A stretch of DNA of 63,838 nt, the filler included, from Coriobacteriales bacterium (GTDB taxonomy: Bacteria > Actinomycetota > Coriobacteriia > Coriobacteriales > UBA8131), in assembly GCA_031263105.1 (NCBI GenBank). It is 5 parts of 5 records of this genome, joined end to end, with 100 filler letters (N's around TTAATTAATTAA, not from the genome) between each part and the next. Parts side by side here need not be neighbours in the genome. Positions count along the whole stretch, not along the records: positions 1 to 19,657 come from JAISGJ010000193.1; 4 more parts are not named here. One strand, 5' to 3'. The position numbers were made by a program. Positions 1 to 6,000 of this stretch are shown in pieces. Within the stretch, counting starts at the first letter, position 1. Each line of letters starts with the position of its first letter.

Positions 1-3000
1 AGGATGAGCCTTGACGGACAAAAGCGGTTCACCTTGGCACGCGTCCCCTGTTACAGTTCACGCCCCACTGTCATTCCTCGGCTGCGCTGCGCTGCGCTCG
101 GAATGACAGTGGGACAGCCGAGGAATCTTTGGACACGCAGTGTCCAACGGTAGGTCAGGGGCCCCTTCGACCTGCGGTCGACCGCTGGCGCGGTCGAGGA
201 TTCCTCGACAGGCTCGGAATGACAGTGGGGGTCCGTGGAGGGTGAGTGTGACAAGGGAACGGTTCTCCTGTCACATGACGACATCAAGGACGCCGATAGT
301 TCAGAGGAAGTAGCTCTGGCGGGCGGACTCGAACTGCTCGAGGAAAAGGCGCTTGTACCAGTAGAGGCTGTGCTGCTCGTCCGTCAGCAAGACGGCCTTC
401 TTGTAGGCGAGCTCCCGGACGCTGCGGTAGGACAGCGGCGCATAGCCCTGCGCCATCAGCACGGCGTTGCCGGTGAGCCTTGCCGTGCGCTTGTTGCCGT
501 CGGAGAAGGGCTGCAGGAAGGCGATCATGGCCGATGCGACGATTGCCGCCTCCACCGGGTGCCGCTTGGCGTTGGCAATGCGCAGCGCCTCGGCGAGGTA
601 TTCGCGCAGCTCGCCTTCGCTTGCCGGGGGCAGGTAGCTGGTGCCGGTGATCCCCACCGGCTGTCGTCGAAGGCCGCTGCCTGTCCCCAGGTCGCGCACC
701 AGCAGCCTGTGCACGGCCAGCACGCCGTCTACGCCCAGCCGCTTGAACTCCTCGCGCCTGCTCCAGACGTGATCCAGGGCGTCCTTGTGGTTGAGAATCA
801 TCTGTGCCTCTTTGGAGGCATGGCCAGACGCCCCTCTGGCTGTCTTGAGCAGCTCTTCGGTTTCTAACAGGGAGTAGGTGTTGCCCTCCATGGCTGAAGA
901 TCTCCAAGCCAGCTCAACGGTGAAGCGCTCGCGCTCGCGCCGCAGAATGTCCGGCTCGCGGCTGGACAGACGGGCCTGAAAGGCGTCGTTGGTTGCGTCT
1001 AATTGCGCCCGCTCCTCCGAGTTCAGCAGCGTGTGCTCGCTGAGTTGGGCCAGAAAGCCTGAGATGCTCTGCTCCGTCAGCGGTCGGTCGTCAGCCTCGT
1101 AGGAGAAATAGGCATCCAGGTCGAAATAGCTCAGCAGCTGGCCGGCTGCCCTCGCCCTATAGCGTGTGGCCGGGCCTTTGCCCGCTGCCTGCACCAGGCC
1201 CTGAGCCTGCAAGGCGTTCAGGTCACGGATGATGGTGGCCCTCGAGGCTGGAAAGCTGCCCCGGAGCAGCCCGGCCAGGTCGTCGCGGGATACGCCTCCG
1301 GCCTGCTGCTCAATGGCAAGGAGCAGAGCCTTCTGACGCAGGGTCAGCTGAGGGCTGTCGCCTGTGGCGTTGCTCTCGTTCATGCCGGACCCGCTATCGT
1401 CTCACCGCATCCTCAGTCATCGTCTCATTATACGACGACTCCTCCCCCGACAGTGAGACGATTCTGGCAAGTCCTGAGCAGGTGCAGCAAGACAGGCAGA
1501 AGGGCTTGCAAGGGGAGGCTTGCAAGGGGAGATGTCAAGGGGACGAAAGCACATCTTGCAACAATGTAGACTGTGGTATACAATAACTCTGTTATGGATG
1601 TCCGCCGCACAGATGAGTTTGCTGACTGGCTGAAGCGCTTGCGCGATGCCGATGCCAGAGCACGCATCAATCTACGGATTGACAGGATTGAGATGACCGG
1701 CAATTTCGGCGATGCCGAGTCGGTCGGAGACGGCGTAAGCGAGCTGAAGGTCGACTGTGGCCCAGGCTACAGGCTTTACTTCGCCTATCGCGGCAAAGAA
1801 GTCATCCTACTGCTGGCCGGAGGGGACAAATCCTCCCAGCAAAGGGACATCGGGAAGGCCAGGAAACTGAACGAAGAGTATGAGTAGAGTGCGAGGCGAG
1901 ACTATGAGAACAGCAGCAAAATGGGACACGGCAGAGTTCCTTGTCAGCGACGAGGACGTCGTCGCCTACCTCAACGCCGCCCTGGAAGACGGCGACCAGG
2001 CCCTCGTCGCAGCAGCGCTCGGCAACATCGCCCGCGCCAGGGGCATGACCCAGCTTGCCAAAGAGACGGGCATCACCCGCGACGGGCTTTACAAGGCGCT
2101 TTCTCCAGACGGCAACCCGTCGTTCAACACCGTTCAACGAGTCGTGAAGGCGCTGGGGCTCAAGCTGGACGTTGCTGTTCCTGTGTGATTGCAGGATGAG
2201 ATATAACGAGACAATCGCCGAGTTGGAGGGCAGAGGCAGCCTGGACGGCTGGAAAGAAGTTCCCAGTTCGGAGATGCTGGAGGACCGCTTGGTCGCCATG
2301 CGCCAGCTTCAGGCCTTCGATGGGCACCTGGAGCGGGGGAAACCGACCGCCGAGATCGAGAAGGCGATCACGGTCCTCAACACCTTGGGCCTCGACCTCA
2401 TCGTCAGCGACAGGGAGAGAGGCGCGCAATGACCCTTGCCGTCAGGCTGCAGATGCGCGGCATTTTCCAGACGGTCGGCAGCGTCGACGTCACCGCCGAG
2501 AACGACGCCAGGTTCACCTACTCAGACGAGTGGTGCGGCCATCCGAGCAACCCGCCGCTCTCACTGTCGCTGCCACTGAGGAAGGGGAGCTTTCGAAAGC
2601 CAGAAAACGCGTGAGAAGGGAAGCGGTATGCAGGATGTCTCCGACAGTGTCTCCTTGCAAGAGCATCCCGACGCGTGACAAAGCGCGTGACAAAGGGACG
2701 GTACTGCGCGTGACAAAGCGCGTGACAAAGCGCGTGACAAAGGCGCGTGACAAAGCGTGACAAAGAGCGTGACAAAGAGCGTGACAAAGGGACGGTACTG
2801 TTTAGCGTGACAAAGAGCGTGACAAAGGAGCGTGACAAAGGGACGGTACTGTTTTGTCACATTCTCGCAATCACCCCTCTGGAGATTCCCGTGACCCTCT
2901 CAATCTGTCGGATGGAAAATCCGCCCTTGCGCAGCGCCATAAGGAGCAAATTCCGCTCCTGCTTGTCAAGGCCGATGACAGCCGAGGGTTCGATTCCGCC

Positions 3001-6000
3001 AAGAGCCTCGATCATCCCGGCCCTTGCCTGCTCCTCGCTCCTCCTTCGCCTATCCGGCAATGATCGATCGACATCGTCTAGAGCTTTGTGGAATTCAATG
3101 AACTGCCTGACGGCCTCCTCCCTGTTTTCGGAGAACATGTCGAGCATTAGCTCGATGTCGGACAGGGTCGTTGAGCTTGAGGTGTAGTCGCGATAGCTGC
3201 TCCACGGGTAGTCTGCGATAAACCTCGTGACGCCGGCTTTGAGAGGATTTTGGTGAATGTAGCGGGCGAGTATAAGAAGATACGAATTGTCCTCTACGCA
3301 TTCGCTTTTGTATCGATTCGAGATGAGTGAGCCGCTGCGCTGGTACTTCTTGTTGAACCAGCAGGCGTAGCTCACGAGCAGCCGTCGCATGGCATGGGTT
3401 ATATCGCCCGGTTTGCTTTCTTGAATGAGGAGGTGCGCGTGATTGCTCATCAGGCAGTATGCGTATAGGTCAATCGGCAGTTCGGCTTTGATGACCGCGA
3501 GGGTTTTGAGGAGTCTCTCATAATCCTCCCGTTCCTCGAAAAGATGGCAGTGGTTCACTCCCCTGAAGACGATGTGATAGAAACCGGACTTGCTGAGTCT
3601 GCGCGGCAATCTGCTAATGGTCGTCGCCTCTCTGTATGGTAGGTACAGGACTTAATAATAATATAGTAACATATCATTAAGTGATGTGTCAAAGCAGTAC
3701 CGTCCCTCTGTCAAAAGTGATGTGTCAAAACAGTACCGTCCCTCTGTCAACCCCCGTCCCTCTGTCAACCCTCTGTCAACCCCTCTGTCAACCCTGTCAA
3801 CCAGTCCCTCTGTCAACCACTCTGTCAACCACCGTCCCTCTGTCAACCTCTGTCAAAACACTCTGTCACTGTCCCTCTGTCACTCTCTCGGTAGCTCAAG
3901 TCGAAGGTAGCCGTGAGGTACGGTGAATCGCGCCGAGCCTTGCGTTTCTGGAAAGCTATTGCGAACGGTATAATCCATCACGTATACTGATAGAATATCG
4001 CGTTCGAGAGAATCGAGGAGCCATGGTCCCTACTGCCAAGATACTGTCGGCGGCTGACTTCGGTGCCGTTGTGCGCGAGAAGCGCAAGGCGCTTGGCTAC
4101 ACCCAGTCCTCGGTGGCCGCCTACTCGGGCTGCGGAGTGATGTTCGTGTCCAACCTGGAGCGGGGGAAGCCGACCGCCGAGATCGAGAAGGCCATCACGG
4201 TCCTCAACACCTTGGGCCTCGACCTCATCGTCAGCGACAGGGAGAGAGGCACGCAATGACCCTCTCCGTCAGGCTGCAAAGGCGCGGCGTTTTCCAGACG
4301 GTCGGCAGCATCGAAGTCGTCGCCGAGAACAACGGCAGGTTCACCTACTCCGACGAGTGGTGCAGCCGTCCGAGCAACCCACCGCTCTCACTGTCGCTGC
4401 CACTGAAGAGGAGGAGCTCTCATTCGGCGCTGATGCGGCCATATTTCGAAGGGCTTCTTCCTGAGGCCGATGCCCGTAAGGCGATTGCCGACAAGCTCGG
4501 CATCTCCGAGCATTCGTATCTCCACATCCTGCAGGCGCTGGGAGACGAATGCATCGGGGCCGTAACGGTCACAGACGCATCTGGTGCCGAGCATGCGCCA
4601 GAGCCAAGATACCAGGCGATGGGCCCGAAGGAGCTTCGGGCGCTGTCCGACAGAAGCTTCGCCGAGACGGCAATCCTCGCCGAGCGCTCGCGGCTCTCGC
4701 TTTCCGGCGGCCAGGCCAAGGCCGGCCTTTACCAAGGCCTTGACGGCTCGTGGTACCTGCCGACCGGCACGGCCCCTTCTACGCACATCGTCAAGCCCAG
4801 CAGCGCCCGCTTCCCGGACATCGTCATCAACGAGGCCATCTGCATGATGGCCGCCGAGAAATGCGGGATACCCGCTGCCAAGGTGGAGGTCTTCGACACG
4901 GGCCGCTCGCCCCTGCTCAGCATTGCCCGCTTCGACAGGACAGGCGGGCTCGGGTCGATCAGTGCCGGCTTTGCCTCCGGCCTGCCCATGCCGCTCAGGC
5001 TGCACCAGGAAGACCTCTGCCAGGCACTCGGCGTGCTGTCTTCCAGCAAGTACGAGTCCAGAGAAAGCCGGTACCTCTCCAAGGCAGCCAAGCTGATCCG
5101 AGGCCACTCTGTCAGGCCCGTGCGAGACATCAAGCACTTTTGGGACTCGATCGCCTTCAACTACCTTATCGGCAATTGCGACAACCACATCAAGAACTAT
5201 TCCCTGGTATACGATGAGGAGATGGAGCATCTGCGGCTTGCGCCCTGCTACGACCTCGTCTGCACGACTATGTATCCAGAGCTCTCCAGAGACATGGGCA
5301 TCCATATTGGCTCCAAGCTCGACATCGACTCAATCGAACCTGCGGATTTCGGGGAATTGGCCGACGTTTTGACCCTTGGCAGAGAAGAGGCGTTCTCACG
5401 GCTTGACGCTGTGCGGGCAAGGCTCGTCGATGCCCTCGAACAGGCAACCGACAGCCTTGCAGCCCAAGGCCACAAAGACGCAAGGCGGGTCGGTAAGGCG
5501 ATTCTGGGCAGCGCCAAGGACAGATTGGGCAAGCCGAGAGCGTGACACGACGCGTCAAAGGGGTGTGAGCACCTTTTGTAGCAGAAGAGACAAGGCTTCT
5601 GCCGTGCCTATCCGCTCTCGTGTCACCCGCATGAAATCCTTGTGTGACAGACAACGGTACTGAAAGTGATAAAGTGGAAGCGGTGGCCCGACGAGCCGGG
5701 AAGAAACGTATGGAAGGTTCGACCGTCCTGCGGACGGTCGAAGGAGCAGCGAGCCTGCGAGCGCGACGAGTAGGTCGGCGAACGCGCGAAGGCGGCGACT
5801 GAGGGAAACATATGGAAGGAGACGGCACCATGACGGACGTGCAGAAGGTGGAGAGGATCAAGGCCCTCATCGAGGAGATCAACGAACTTTCGGCGGAGCT
5901 TTCGGAGGACGAGCTCGAGCAGGTCGCGGGCGGCAGTGGCCCCTGCGGCTGCATCGGCCCCGGCCTCGGCAAGGTCGACCCCGACACCAAGGGGCGCTAT

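Follow-up and report, generated by a model that had tools for sequence, protein, structure and literature searches.

A small Y1-transposase element, probably of TIRYT/TIRtron kind, in a termite-gut Coriobacteriales genome

Introduction

In the account of TIRYT/TIRtron elements given by Di Nocera, De Gregorio and Rocco (2013, PMC3733652), the terminal inverted repeats (TIRs) share the motif GGGGWSAS and form moderately abundant families that occur as singles, dimers and groups. Two other described classes bear on the same proteins. RAYT Group 1, described as present in Clostridia too and called IS-like (Bertels 2017, PMC5581495), has a mean flanking 16-mer count of 12 in that paper, where Groups 2 and 3, which bear REPs, average 57 and 140. 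TnpA-Y1 subclass 2.1 is described by Quentin et al. (2018, PMC6006769) as carrying a C-terminal HTH, with no REP-like structure found for it, and the same paper describes the ends of IS200/IS605 elements as lacking inverted repeats. As these accounts describe them, TIRYT/TIRtron, RAYT Group 1 and subclass 2.1 are the same kind of system.

Here, we describe a locus at 2672-3890 of a window (the whole stretch of DNA analysed, 63,838 nt) from a Coriobacteriales genome. It had been read in an initial annotation as a REP/RAYT-type system outside the Proteobacteria.

Results

The transposase ORF (2857..3609, minus strand) encodes a 250-aa Y1/HUH class-2 protein from a TTG start and matches Pfam Y1_Tnp (2.6e-14, 55.6 bits), as annotated initially. 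Translation may instead start at an in-frame ATT (3616-3618, reading ISRLPRR), where homologues carry ATG. The sole NCBIfam match is REP_Tyr_transpos at 64.9 bits, which does lie below the curated RAYT cut-off of 80, and there is no IS200 NCBIfam match at E 1 or better. The HuH motif is NHAH (H57, H59) and the Y motif YIHQNP (Y117), with WSS also present; this class-2 signature (Y---NP, NH[AV]H, WSS) is conserved in a 41-sequence family alignment, of which the local protein keeps 27 of 27 invariant columns in a frame that is intact over its full length. Where subclass 2.1 is published as having W[EQ]/FQ, the alignment shows I[AS]. An extra 110-residue tail carries an HTH (about residues 191-250, encoded on the minus strand), which follows the Y motif; among the 41 family members the Pfam HTH matches are MarR_2 (5/41), HTH_5 (4/41) and HTH_3 (2/41), with none to Bac_DnaA_C, HTH_23 or HTH_28 at E 0.01 or better.

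The predicted structure (pLDDT 88.6) has E. coli TnpA-REP (4er8) as its top Foldseek match (E 6.7e-8), with Z 17.8, rmsd 3.2 and 160 of 165 residues aligned in the VIA comparison, compared with Z 10.3 (112 aligned) for IS608 TnpA and 8.2 for Sulfolobus TnpA. Sequence motifs and the predicted fold thus support a RAYT-like rather than an IS200-like protein, in agreement with the initial annotation. The gene is single-copy in this genome; a paralogue (C165:2334-2927) is 35% identical and, as noted before, without hairpins. Two true IS200-type genes in the genome score 115-119 bits against Y1_Tnp.

Inverted repeats with a GGGACGGTACTG core lie on both sides of the gene, with arrays of partial copies beyond them, and the inner arms (2833-2862 and 3720-3749, 30 nt) are 93% complementary, bearing out the inverted flanking arrays claimed initially, which lie at 2672-2851 and 3679-3886. 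The gene-distal end (2832..2860, plus strand) is a complete hairpin, GTGACAA-AGGGACGGTACTGTT-TTGTCAC, whose DNA fold of -6.8 kcal/mol (z -3.19) was equalled by 0 of 200 shuffles. The promoter-side end (3679..3750, minus strand) comprises two 36-nt units (period 36, 97% by repeat detection), each with TTGACAGAGGGACGGTACTG[CT]TTTGACAC; their arms are non-complementary, so that neither copy folds as a hairpin (z -0.11 and +0.16). These values differ from the hairpin z of -0.8 given previously.

On the gene-distal side, the outer array (2672..2831, plus strand) consists of about 12 head-to-tail GCGTGACAAAG copies, two of which (2684-2706 and 2778-2803) run on into the loop as ...GGGACGGTACTG; repeat detection gives periods of 12 (14 copies) and 47 for 2672-2851. 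On the promoter side, the outer array (3751..3890, minus strand) contains partial copies, TTGACAGAGG(GACGG..), that are variably cut. One Logan contig matches 2394-2803 without a single difference and another covers 3574-4223; the read depth of the element equals that of its flanks (about 22 to 28).

A promoter-like site (3663..3692, minus strand; TTGACA -35, 18-nt spacer, TG-n-TACTAT) has 10 of 12 matches, and the inner arm of the promoter-side end repeat forms its -35 box. With two such sites where shuffles gave 0.7 +/- 1.2, the evidence for a promoter is weak. Because the -35 box is supplied by the end itself, binding of the HTH domain there could repress the transposase gene.

The surroundings include a 269-nt direct repeat of hipBA sequence, which is context and not part of the transposase element. 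Its left copy (2326..2594, plus strand) holds the 3' part of hipB and the 5' part of a truncated hipA, with a Couple_hipA match only; the right copy (4153..4421, plus strand), 92% identical, lies within an intact hipB-hipA pair.

Ends without a gene are dispersed through the genome as solo ends, head-to-tail arrays and inverted doublets, the dispersal itself having been recognised initially. Of the 250 contigs, 21 carry GGACGGTACTG, at 38 sites in all. Family A (a 30-mer, GTGACAG..CTGTCAC, with at most 5 mismatches) has 27 matches on 17 contigs, 21 of them within 150 nt of a contig end and 6 with 0 mismatches; many copies are mutually identical, and the stem GTGACAG/CTGTCAC differs from the gene's own GTGACAA/TTGTCAC. 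Family B has 23 matches, including 10 inverted doublets, with no cognate gene in this assembly (86% complete), and family C has 4; a shuffled genome gave 0 matches to all three. One family B doublet in the window (51611..51688, C194:19745-19822; unstranded) comprises CACAGGGGGACGGTTCTTTTGTGC, a 30-nt spacer and the reverse complement, has no gene, is flanked by partial copies and folds at -40.9 kcal/mol (z -11.6). Another gene-less doublet (36029..36128, C194:4163-4262; unstranded), with GCGACAGAGGGGACGGTACG.., a spacer of about 40 nt and the reverse complement, folds at -41.9 kcal/mol (z -10.0). The most frequent flanking 16-mer, by the measure of Bertels, occurs 13 times.

The repeat family extends to sister genera, as first proposed, and the loop GGGGACGGTACTGTT is common to four genera of one family, where it is combined with different complementary stems (G000, the genome studied, G003, G012 and G031). 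The exact 15-mer occurs 22 times in G000, 12 times in G012, 4 times in G003 and once in G031, but 0 times in 57 other relatives, and the reversed control gave 0; the earlier count for G012 was the same, and those for G000 (43) and G003 (9) were different. Both testable G003 doublets (2/2) are intergenic, and the corresponding G000 regions are without the repeat.

Of 61 genomes, 24 have a homologue of the transposase; within the same family the figure is 14 of 33. Actinomycetota and Bacillota sequences intermingle in the tree, where the label needs 2 changes (15 labelled rows, 26 unlabelled). Near-full-length matches were available for 36 of 67 named loci, of which 2 were dropped for short flanks. 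An inverted flank match of at least 14 nt was found in 27 of the remaining 34, while the direct control gave 9 of 34, which upholds the earlier result for named homologous loci (20/29 versus 6/29). Homologues in Clostridia and Coriobacteriia have a GGGGACGG core, and inward-facing GGGAC[GA]G is found on both flanks in 30 of 49 loci (reversed motif, 0/49), whereas only one of the 49 has exact GGGGWSAS on each side. An enclosing stem of at least 6 is present at 69 of 217 unfiltered core sites (86 loci), compared with 11.2 +/- 3.1 (maximum 23) for permuted partners in 200 permutations, with 33 different stem 6-mers. The end core GGGGAC(G/A)G is conserved and, in most relatives, enclosed by a short stem that covaries, its sequence varying between elements while complementarity is kept. 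Not every element has such a stem: in that of Petroclostridium, GGGG is found at the 5' foot of another hairpin.

In Petroclostridium sp. X23, an 880-nt unit occurs seven times at 96.8-100% identity with unrelated flanks. Two loci of one MAG (L021 and L022) are 97.5% identical over 878 nt, and two from different MAGs (L034 and L035) 97.0% identical over 906 nt, with the ends as the boundaries in each case. As judged from these copies, the end-gene-end unit (about 0.88 kb) evidently moves as an insertion sequence in other genomes.

Discussion

Our results suggest that 2672-3890 is probably one copy of a small Y1-transposase element of TIRYT/TIRtron kind, a class with published descriptions. Consistent with this, the RAYT-like Y1 transposase is longer than RAYTs (250 aa here, median 238) and has a C-terminal HTH, the TIRs share a GGGG-led motif and form moderately abundant families of singles, dimers and groups, and duplicates and horizontal spread are IS-like traits. 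The 16-mer count of 13 matches Group 1 (mean 12) and not the REP-bearing groups. The locus departs from the published class in its motif (GGGGACGG, differing from GGGGWSAS at 1 of 8 positions), in I[AS] for W[EQ]/FQ, in HTH matches outside Bac_DnaA_C, HTH_23 and HTH_28, and in a core that lies in the loop of a covarying hairpin in most loci. The hosts here are Coriobacteriales and Clostridia, whereas the words Firmicutes, Actinobacteria and Clostridi are absent from the main text of PMC3733652.

If the transposase works like E. coli TnpA-REP and IS608 TnpA, it would bind the end in single-stranded form, folded as a hairpin; Tyr117 would cut, His57 and His59 would hold the metal and the strand would be rejoined elsewhere. 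Single-strand 'peel and paste' chemistry, as in IS200/IS605, is likely.

Alternatively, the gene could be a domesticated RAYT of REPIN type, a single-copy, vertically kept and immobile transposase that spreads hairpin doublets as in proteobacterial Groups 2 and 3, and it would then be an independent case in Actinomycetota. We regard this as unlikely. It would account for the one gene copy beside a 35% paralogue without hairpins, for ends that outnumber the gene (27 family A, 10 family B doublets), for doublets that fold as long hairpins, for the loop shared by four genera and for a degenerate promoter-side end that could fix the gene in place. The fold is also nearest TnpA-REP, which likewise has the Y---NP and SS motifs, and, as in the E. 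coli REPtron, inverted hairpin repeats flank the gene and are dispersed as inverted doublets. However, identity to TnpA-REP is only 15-16%, the NCBIfam score is under the cut-off, the HTH tail is additional, the GTAG foot of REP/BIME or REPIN sequences is absent and dispersed copies number in tens, not hundreds. The family is also multi-copy and near-identical in other genomes, patchy among relatives (14/33) and phylogenetically interleaved, and the G003 doublets occupy non-orthologous sites. Thus, the RAYT-like protein, inverted repeats and dispersal in the initial annotation stand, but a REPIN-type system new outside the Proteobacteria is not supported, since this kind is already in print as TIRYT/Group 1/subclass 2.1, the 16-mer count is 13 and units are duplicated as insertion sequences.

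It is less probable still that gene and hairpins are a relic of past activity in which nothing moves and arrays grow by replication slippage alone. The ATT in place of ATG, the non-complementary promoter-side arms, the rearranged hipBA region and a depth no different from the flanks would fit, but the frame and all invariant columns are intact and many family A copies are identical; as a statement on the local copy alone, such decay is compatible with a TIRYT/TIRtron element.

The least credible reading is an ordinary insertion sequence of IS200/IS605 type (TnpA-IS200, subclass 1.1) whose solo ends are scattered: in its favour are the HUH/Y1 fold of IS608 and ISDra2 TnpA, the Y1_Tnp match, multi-copy relatives that behave as insertion sequences and the presence of two true IS200-type genes in the genome, but the protein is larger by its HTH tail, has Y---NP and not Y---Q, scores about half as many Y1_Tnp bits as those genes, lacks an IS200 NCBIfam match and fits IS608 TnpA less well than 4er8, and its ends are inverted repeats and not two like-oriented subterminal hairpins.

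For the TIRYT/TIRtron element itself, the local copy may be impaired, with a promoter-side end that cannot fold and ATT where relatives have ATG. Its host is a termite-gut Coriobacteriales bacterium, in which the family of gene-less ends is of modest size and resembles miniature non-autonomous elements.

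Structure and conservation of the transposase

The transposase gene on contig C191 (window 1–19657) occupies positions 2857–3609 on the minus strand, and the initial annotation had placed its 250-aa product among the Y1 transposases, nearer to RAYTs (REP-associated tyrosine transposases) than to IS200. This placement is upheld by a match to Pfam Y1_Tnp (2.6e-14, 55.6 bits) and by REP_Tyr_transpos being the sole NCBIfam match, at 64.9 bits against a curated cut-off of 80 that is thus not reached. An alignment of 41 sequences with 47–60% identity to the query reveals N56-H57-x-H59, Y117-I-H-x-N-P and S138 of the WSS motif (136–138) as invariant or nearly so, with the HuH (NHAH) and Y (YIHQNP) motifs kept throughout and a conserved tail, GFSIRQIERxTGISRGI. 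In the excerpted text of PMC6006769, Y---NP is the signature of class 2 (TnpA-REP) and Y---Q that of IS200.

The AlphaFold model (pLDDT 88.6) has the E. coli TnpA-REP structure, 4er8, as its top structural match (Foldseek E 6.7e-8; VIA-align Z 17.8, rmsd 3.2, 160/165 residues), followed at lower scores by IS608 TnpA (Z 10.3) and a Sulfolobus enzyme (Z 8.2). A sequence-only PDB search again placed 4er8 first, but weakly (E 0.048). C-terminal helices are predicted to span residues 192–249, and residues 191–250 align to the HTH of Spo0J (Z 5.3). Pfam HTH matches among the 41 family members were to MarR_2 (five), HTH_5 (four) and HTH_3 (two); Bac_DnaA_C, HTH_23 and HTH_28 were not among them.

Homologues start with M-S-R-x-x-R. 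In this gene ATT occupies the corresponding in-frame position (window 3609–3618), reading I-S-R-L-P-R-R, and the first standard start, TTG, lies three codons downstream. Having ATT for ATG could mean that the start is weak or that the gene is decaying. A weakly supported promoter-like site lies at 3663–3692, where the inner arm TTGACA would serve as the −35 box. The transposase is single-copy in this genome. Of the four genes there that match Y1_Tnp, two are of the typical IS200 type (115–119 bits), and the paralogue on contig C165, 35% identical and scoring 28 bits on Y1_Tnp, is without hairpins.

Terminal repeats and their outer arrays

The ends of the element read ..GTGACAAAGGGACGG.., and the conserved element is GGGGACGG. 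The gene-distal end (2832–2860) is a complete hairpin, GTGACAA-AGGGACGGTACTGTT-TTGTCAC, with a fold z of −3.19, and the promoter-side end (3679–3750) consists of two 36-nt units in which this core is reverse-complemented and whose arms TTGACAG and TTGACAC cannot pair (z −0.11 and +0.16). A left outer array fills 2672–2831 with roughly twelve copies of GCGTGACAAAG placed head to tail; two of them continue into ..GGGACGGTACTG. Partial copies extend beyond the promoter-side units as a right outer array at 3751–3890. The inverted arrays reported earlier on both flanks are real, at 2672–2831 and 3679–3890, with 30-nt inner arms that are 93% complementary. A GTAG foot was looked for, and no 5′ GT[AG]G adjoins the hairpin in the end repeats.

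Outside the ends, the outer arm is repeated head to tail together with a part of the core that varies in extent. Such stutter arrays also occur in the same genome at C239:5330–5430 and C127:2472–2615 and at seven homologous loci (L004, L005, L010, L011, L021, L034 and L035), as well as in the right flanks of loci L121–L132; in Petroclostridium TAAG is duplicated at the right end together with 5–7 flank bases. A general bias of stutter arrays to the outer side was considered and rejected: an exact arm+GGG probe was found 9/67 times outside and 5/67 inside, and the arm alone, at one copy or more, 16/67 outside versus 19/67 inside. Only the class with at least two extra arm copies was one-sided, at 5/67 outside versus 0/67 inside; the corresponding figures in the genome under study are 7/73 and 2/73.

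The assembly, five contigs of which make up the window, comprises 250 contigs and 2.9 Mb at 64.5% G+C (86% complete, 6.5% contamination). A single run, stored as contigs, labelled termite gut metagenome and probably the source sample, contains the stretch, and its contigs cover window 2200–4500 with 0 differences and no joints. Since both arrays are spanned without difference by these Logan contigs, an artefact of one assembler is ruled out, though the underlying data are probably the same; in this run the depth of the element equals that of its flanks. Poly-C and poly-G 16-mers were counted 1396 times in the genome, and several contigs have long stretches of G or C close to an end, which may be a sequencing artefact.

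Genomic setting

The element sits within a toxin-antitoxin island (301–5545), between its two hipBA copies. The island carries Fic (301–1383), a Gp49-like protein with its antidote (1573–2188), hipB′ with a truncated hipA′ (2172–2614) and an intact HipB-HipA pair (4023–5545). Direct repeats of 269 nt, 92% identical, enclose the element; they duplicate the hipB 3′ and hipA 5′ parts, the left hipA being truncated.

A nested-palindrome element is very abundant genome-wide (in the window at 60–230 and 7125–7380) and ends in CCACTGTCAT[TC]CCGAGC. Allowing up to 1 mismatch, its termini number 1153 in this genome, 10 or fewer in six relatives and none in 54, which looks like a genome-specific burst. 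It forms 268 innermost inverted pairs, 154 of them at 130–139 nt, and often has 19-nt stutter arrays of its own (for example 7245–7375). A degenerate hairpin, GTGACAAGGGAACGGTTCTCCTGTCAC, at window 248–274 directly adjoins one of its termini. A link between the transposase ends and the very abundant CCACTGTCATYCCGAGC element is not established: GACAGTGGGG is common to both, but CCGTCC lies near only 22/759 outermost termini. The two IS200-type elements, at C197:3500–4400 and C168:12300–13545 outside the window (115–119 bits, Y1_Tnp), are inserted at the same position in a terminus of the abundant element, reading ..CCCCACTGTCAT(T), the IS ending ..TTAC, then TCCGAGC.. Targeting of repeat elements is a known habit of insertion sequences.

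The ends travel with the gene

A homologue is present in 24/61 related genomes and in 14/33 genomes of the same family, and 557/586 candidate stretches, taken at one genome per species, encode a relative. Matching protein clusters number at least 1468 at E 1e-5 or better, are labelled 'REP element-mobilizing transposase RayT' by JGI and 'transposase' by NCBI, and come from Coriobacteriia, Eggerthellaceae, Propionibacteriaceae and Clostridia MAGs. The tree of homologues requires two phylum changes. A 2.4-kb contig binned as Methanobrevibacter sp. (locus L148) encodes a 43%-identical homologue, which could reflect either mistaken binning or transfer. Among plasmids, 17 records match, only two over at least 80% of the query. 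An Rfam search gave no relevant match.

From 67 named loci, 36 near-full-length matches were taken and two dropped for short flanks; an inverted flank match of at least 14 nt was found at 27 of the remaining 34, compared with 9/34 for the direct control. Where both flanks were available, inward-facing GGGAC[GA]G occurs on both at 30/49 loci and exact GGGGACGG at 19/49, versus 0/49 for the reversed control motif. With no structural filter applied, a stem of at least six pairs encloses 69 of 217 core sites from 86 loci, while permuting the 3′ partners 200 times gave 11.2 ± 3.1 (maximum 23). The stems use 33 different 6-mers, showing covariation of the stem around a constant core. In Petroclostridium GGGG is instead found at the foot of another hairpin (ACGTGC..GCACGT), so the enclosing stem is common, not universal. 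The part of the loop after GGGGACGG varies by element (e.g. GGGGCG, GTTCCA, GTTCGA, GTACTG), which would fit ends and enzymes having diverged together.

In some genomes the whole unit is present in near-identical copies. The complete genome of the isolate Petroclostridium sp. X23 has seven copies of an 880-nt block, starting ..TATATGGGGACGTGCC and ending ..GGCACGTCCCTAAG, that are pairwise 96.8–100% identical with unrelated flanks. One Eubacteriales MAG has two copies, 97.5% identical over 878 nt, and two different MAGs share copies 97.0% identical over 906 nt, the match being bounded by the ends in both cases. The unit, gene and ends together, is mobile and behaves as an insertion sequence.

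Gene-less ends dispersed in the genome

The hairpin had been described earlier as dispersed through the genome and its sister genera, and our searches agree. Family A (GTGACAG-TGGGGACGGTACTGTT-CTGTCAC, up to 5 mismatches) gives 27 matches, which are spread over 17 contigs and in 21 cases lie no more than 150 nt from a contig end. In 19 cases a family A hairpin points towards a contig end at most 120 nt away: four run into a palindromic centre and are inverted doublets broken by the assembler, 12 run into more head-to-tail copies whose period is about 39 or 45 nt, and three into unique sequence, so that match counts do not give array copy numbers. Family B (CACAGGGGGACGGTTCTTTTGTGC, up to 3 mismatches) gives 23 matches on 12 contigs, 20 of which pair up as ten inverted doublets, with a semi-conserved spacer of constant length, 30 nt (window 51611–51688 and contigs C8, C23, C66, C85, C100, C159, C163, C210 and C235). 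No cognate transposase for family B is present in the assembly, which is 86% complete. The family B hairpin matches the ends of homologues in two relatives, G016 and G002 (loci L008 and L011). Family C, the gene's own type, has four matches: two are the ends on C191, and the other two form a tandem pair on C239 that follows a stutter array. None of the three families gave any match in a shuffled genome. The 6-mer core GGACGG was rejected as a probe, being too common (4416 sites, with a hairpin at 478 versus 435 in random controls).

The gene-less ends thus occur as solo ends (C239), inverted doublets (C204 and the ten of family B) and head-to-tail arrays, and the doublets fold strongly (−40.9 and −41.9 kcal/mol, z −11.6 and −10.0). 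An exact 15-mer has 22 occurrences in this genome, 12 in G012, four in G003 and a single one in G031; 57 other relatives lack it (control 0), and the copies in these three relatives have the same loop with different stems that still pair. Two G003 doublets could be placed; both are intergenic, and the counterparts of their flanking genes here, aligning at 70–77%, border repeat-free spacers, indicating lineage-specific insertion, although the intergenic DNA is not alignable and yields no exact insertion point. By a crude, GC3-based coding call that covers only 57% of bases, 9/27 family A, 6/23 family B and 0/4 family C sites lie inside coding calls, which suggests, but does not prove, depletion of dispersed ends from coding calls.

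Relationship to described RAYT groups

The best reading is that the element is of the TIRYT/TIRtron type, with gene-less derivatives of its ends, and is possibly impaired as a unit. These names were given by Di Nocera et al. to RAYT-like genes flanked by terminal inverted repeats (TIRs), which, according to the parts of PMC3733652 consulted, share GGGGWSAS, include some self-complementary tracts and form 'moderately abundant' families of singles, dimers or groups. Named TIRYTs include those of S. maltophilia (ORFs 1152 and 4509), K. versatilis (1552, 2776 and 3477) and G. mallensis (794). Passages of Quentin et al. (PMC6006769) equate TIRYTs with subclass 2.1 (median 238 aa, C-terminal HTH, 'no' REP), which includes 291/292 of Bertels' Group 1 sequences. 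Group 1 in turn, in the excerpts of Bertels et al. (PMC5581495), spans 21 classes including Clostridia, has 6.3% duplicates and some plasmid copies, and is called, with Group 6, most IS-like.

The locus shares with this type a RAYT-like Y1 gene between terminal inverted repeats, a protein of similar length (250 aa) that has an SS tail motif (WSS) and is extended at the C terminus by an HTH, and moderately abundant ends as singles, dimers and groups. The commonest flanking 16-mer has 13 occurrences, 11 outside the element, close to the frequency of 12 given for Group 1 in the same excerpts of PMC5581495. The correspondence, though good, is incomplete. GGGGACGG agrees with GGGGWSAS at 7/8 positions, and the exact motif is on both flanks in 1/49 loci. 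Against the subclass 2.1 motifs of Table 1 in PMC6006769, as excerpted (NHVH/NH[YF]H, W[EQ]/FQ, YIELNP/Y[IV]HLNP), NH[AV]H agrees, YIHQNP departs by a single residue and I[AS] in place of W[EQ]/FQ does not agree; the HTH Pfam families of subclass 2.1 also differ from those matched here.

A broader interpretation, which we consider improbable, would take the clade, which numbers at least 1468 proteins and comes mainly from Gram-positive anaerobes, as an unnamed Y1-class insertion-sequence family, whose ends would be covarying hairpins with GGGGACGG in the loop, nearer to rolling-circle Rep nick sites than to IS608 or REP, and whose stutter arrays would be left by repeated cutting and rejoining. 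The copy studied here would then be in transition, one immobilised gene serving gene-less doublets and arrays, and a REPIN/RAYT-like relationship would have arisen independently in Actinomycetota.

The initial annotation had gone further in proposing a REP/RAYT-type system. The Y1 HUH fold, the HuH motif and the class-2 Y---NP motif are indeed shared with REP/RAYT systems (Bertels Groups 2/3, Quentin 2.2/2.5), but the proposal fails on the curated score (64.9 versus 80), the GTAG foot and flanking-repeat abundance, the 13 occurrences here contrasting with means of 57 and 140 for the REP-bearing Groups 2 and 3 (PMC5581495, in part). IS200/IS605 (subclass 1.1) differs in its Y---Q motif, its length of about 150 aa without extra domains and its subterminal hairpins without inverted repeats.

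Implications

TIRYTs were named in 2013, and among the papers listed by the literature searches made here only one later study (PMC6006769) mentions them; in the portions of it consulted, genes of subclass 2.1 were reported to have no repeat structure around them. A search of the literature from 2017 onward on RAYTs with Clostridia, Coriobacteriia or Actinobacteria added nothing relevant. The locus and its relatives bridge these two papers by showing, for the Gram-positive branch at least, ends that are hairpins with covarying stems and a constant GGGGACGG. For this genome itself, the result is a point of annotation and not a surprise. For the family, some genomes have a unit that still transposes as a whole and others build up gene-less derivatives, and with Petroclostridium sp. 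X23, which is cultured and carries seven fresh copies, the chemistry of this neglected group of RAYTs can be tested directly.
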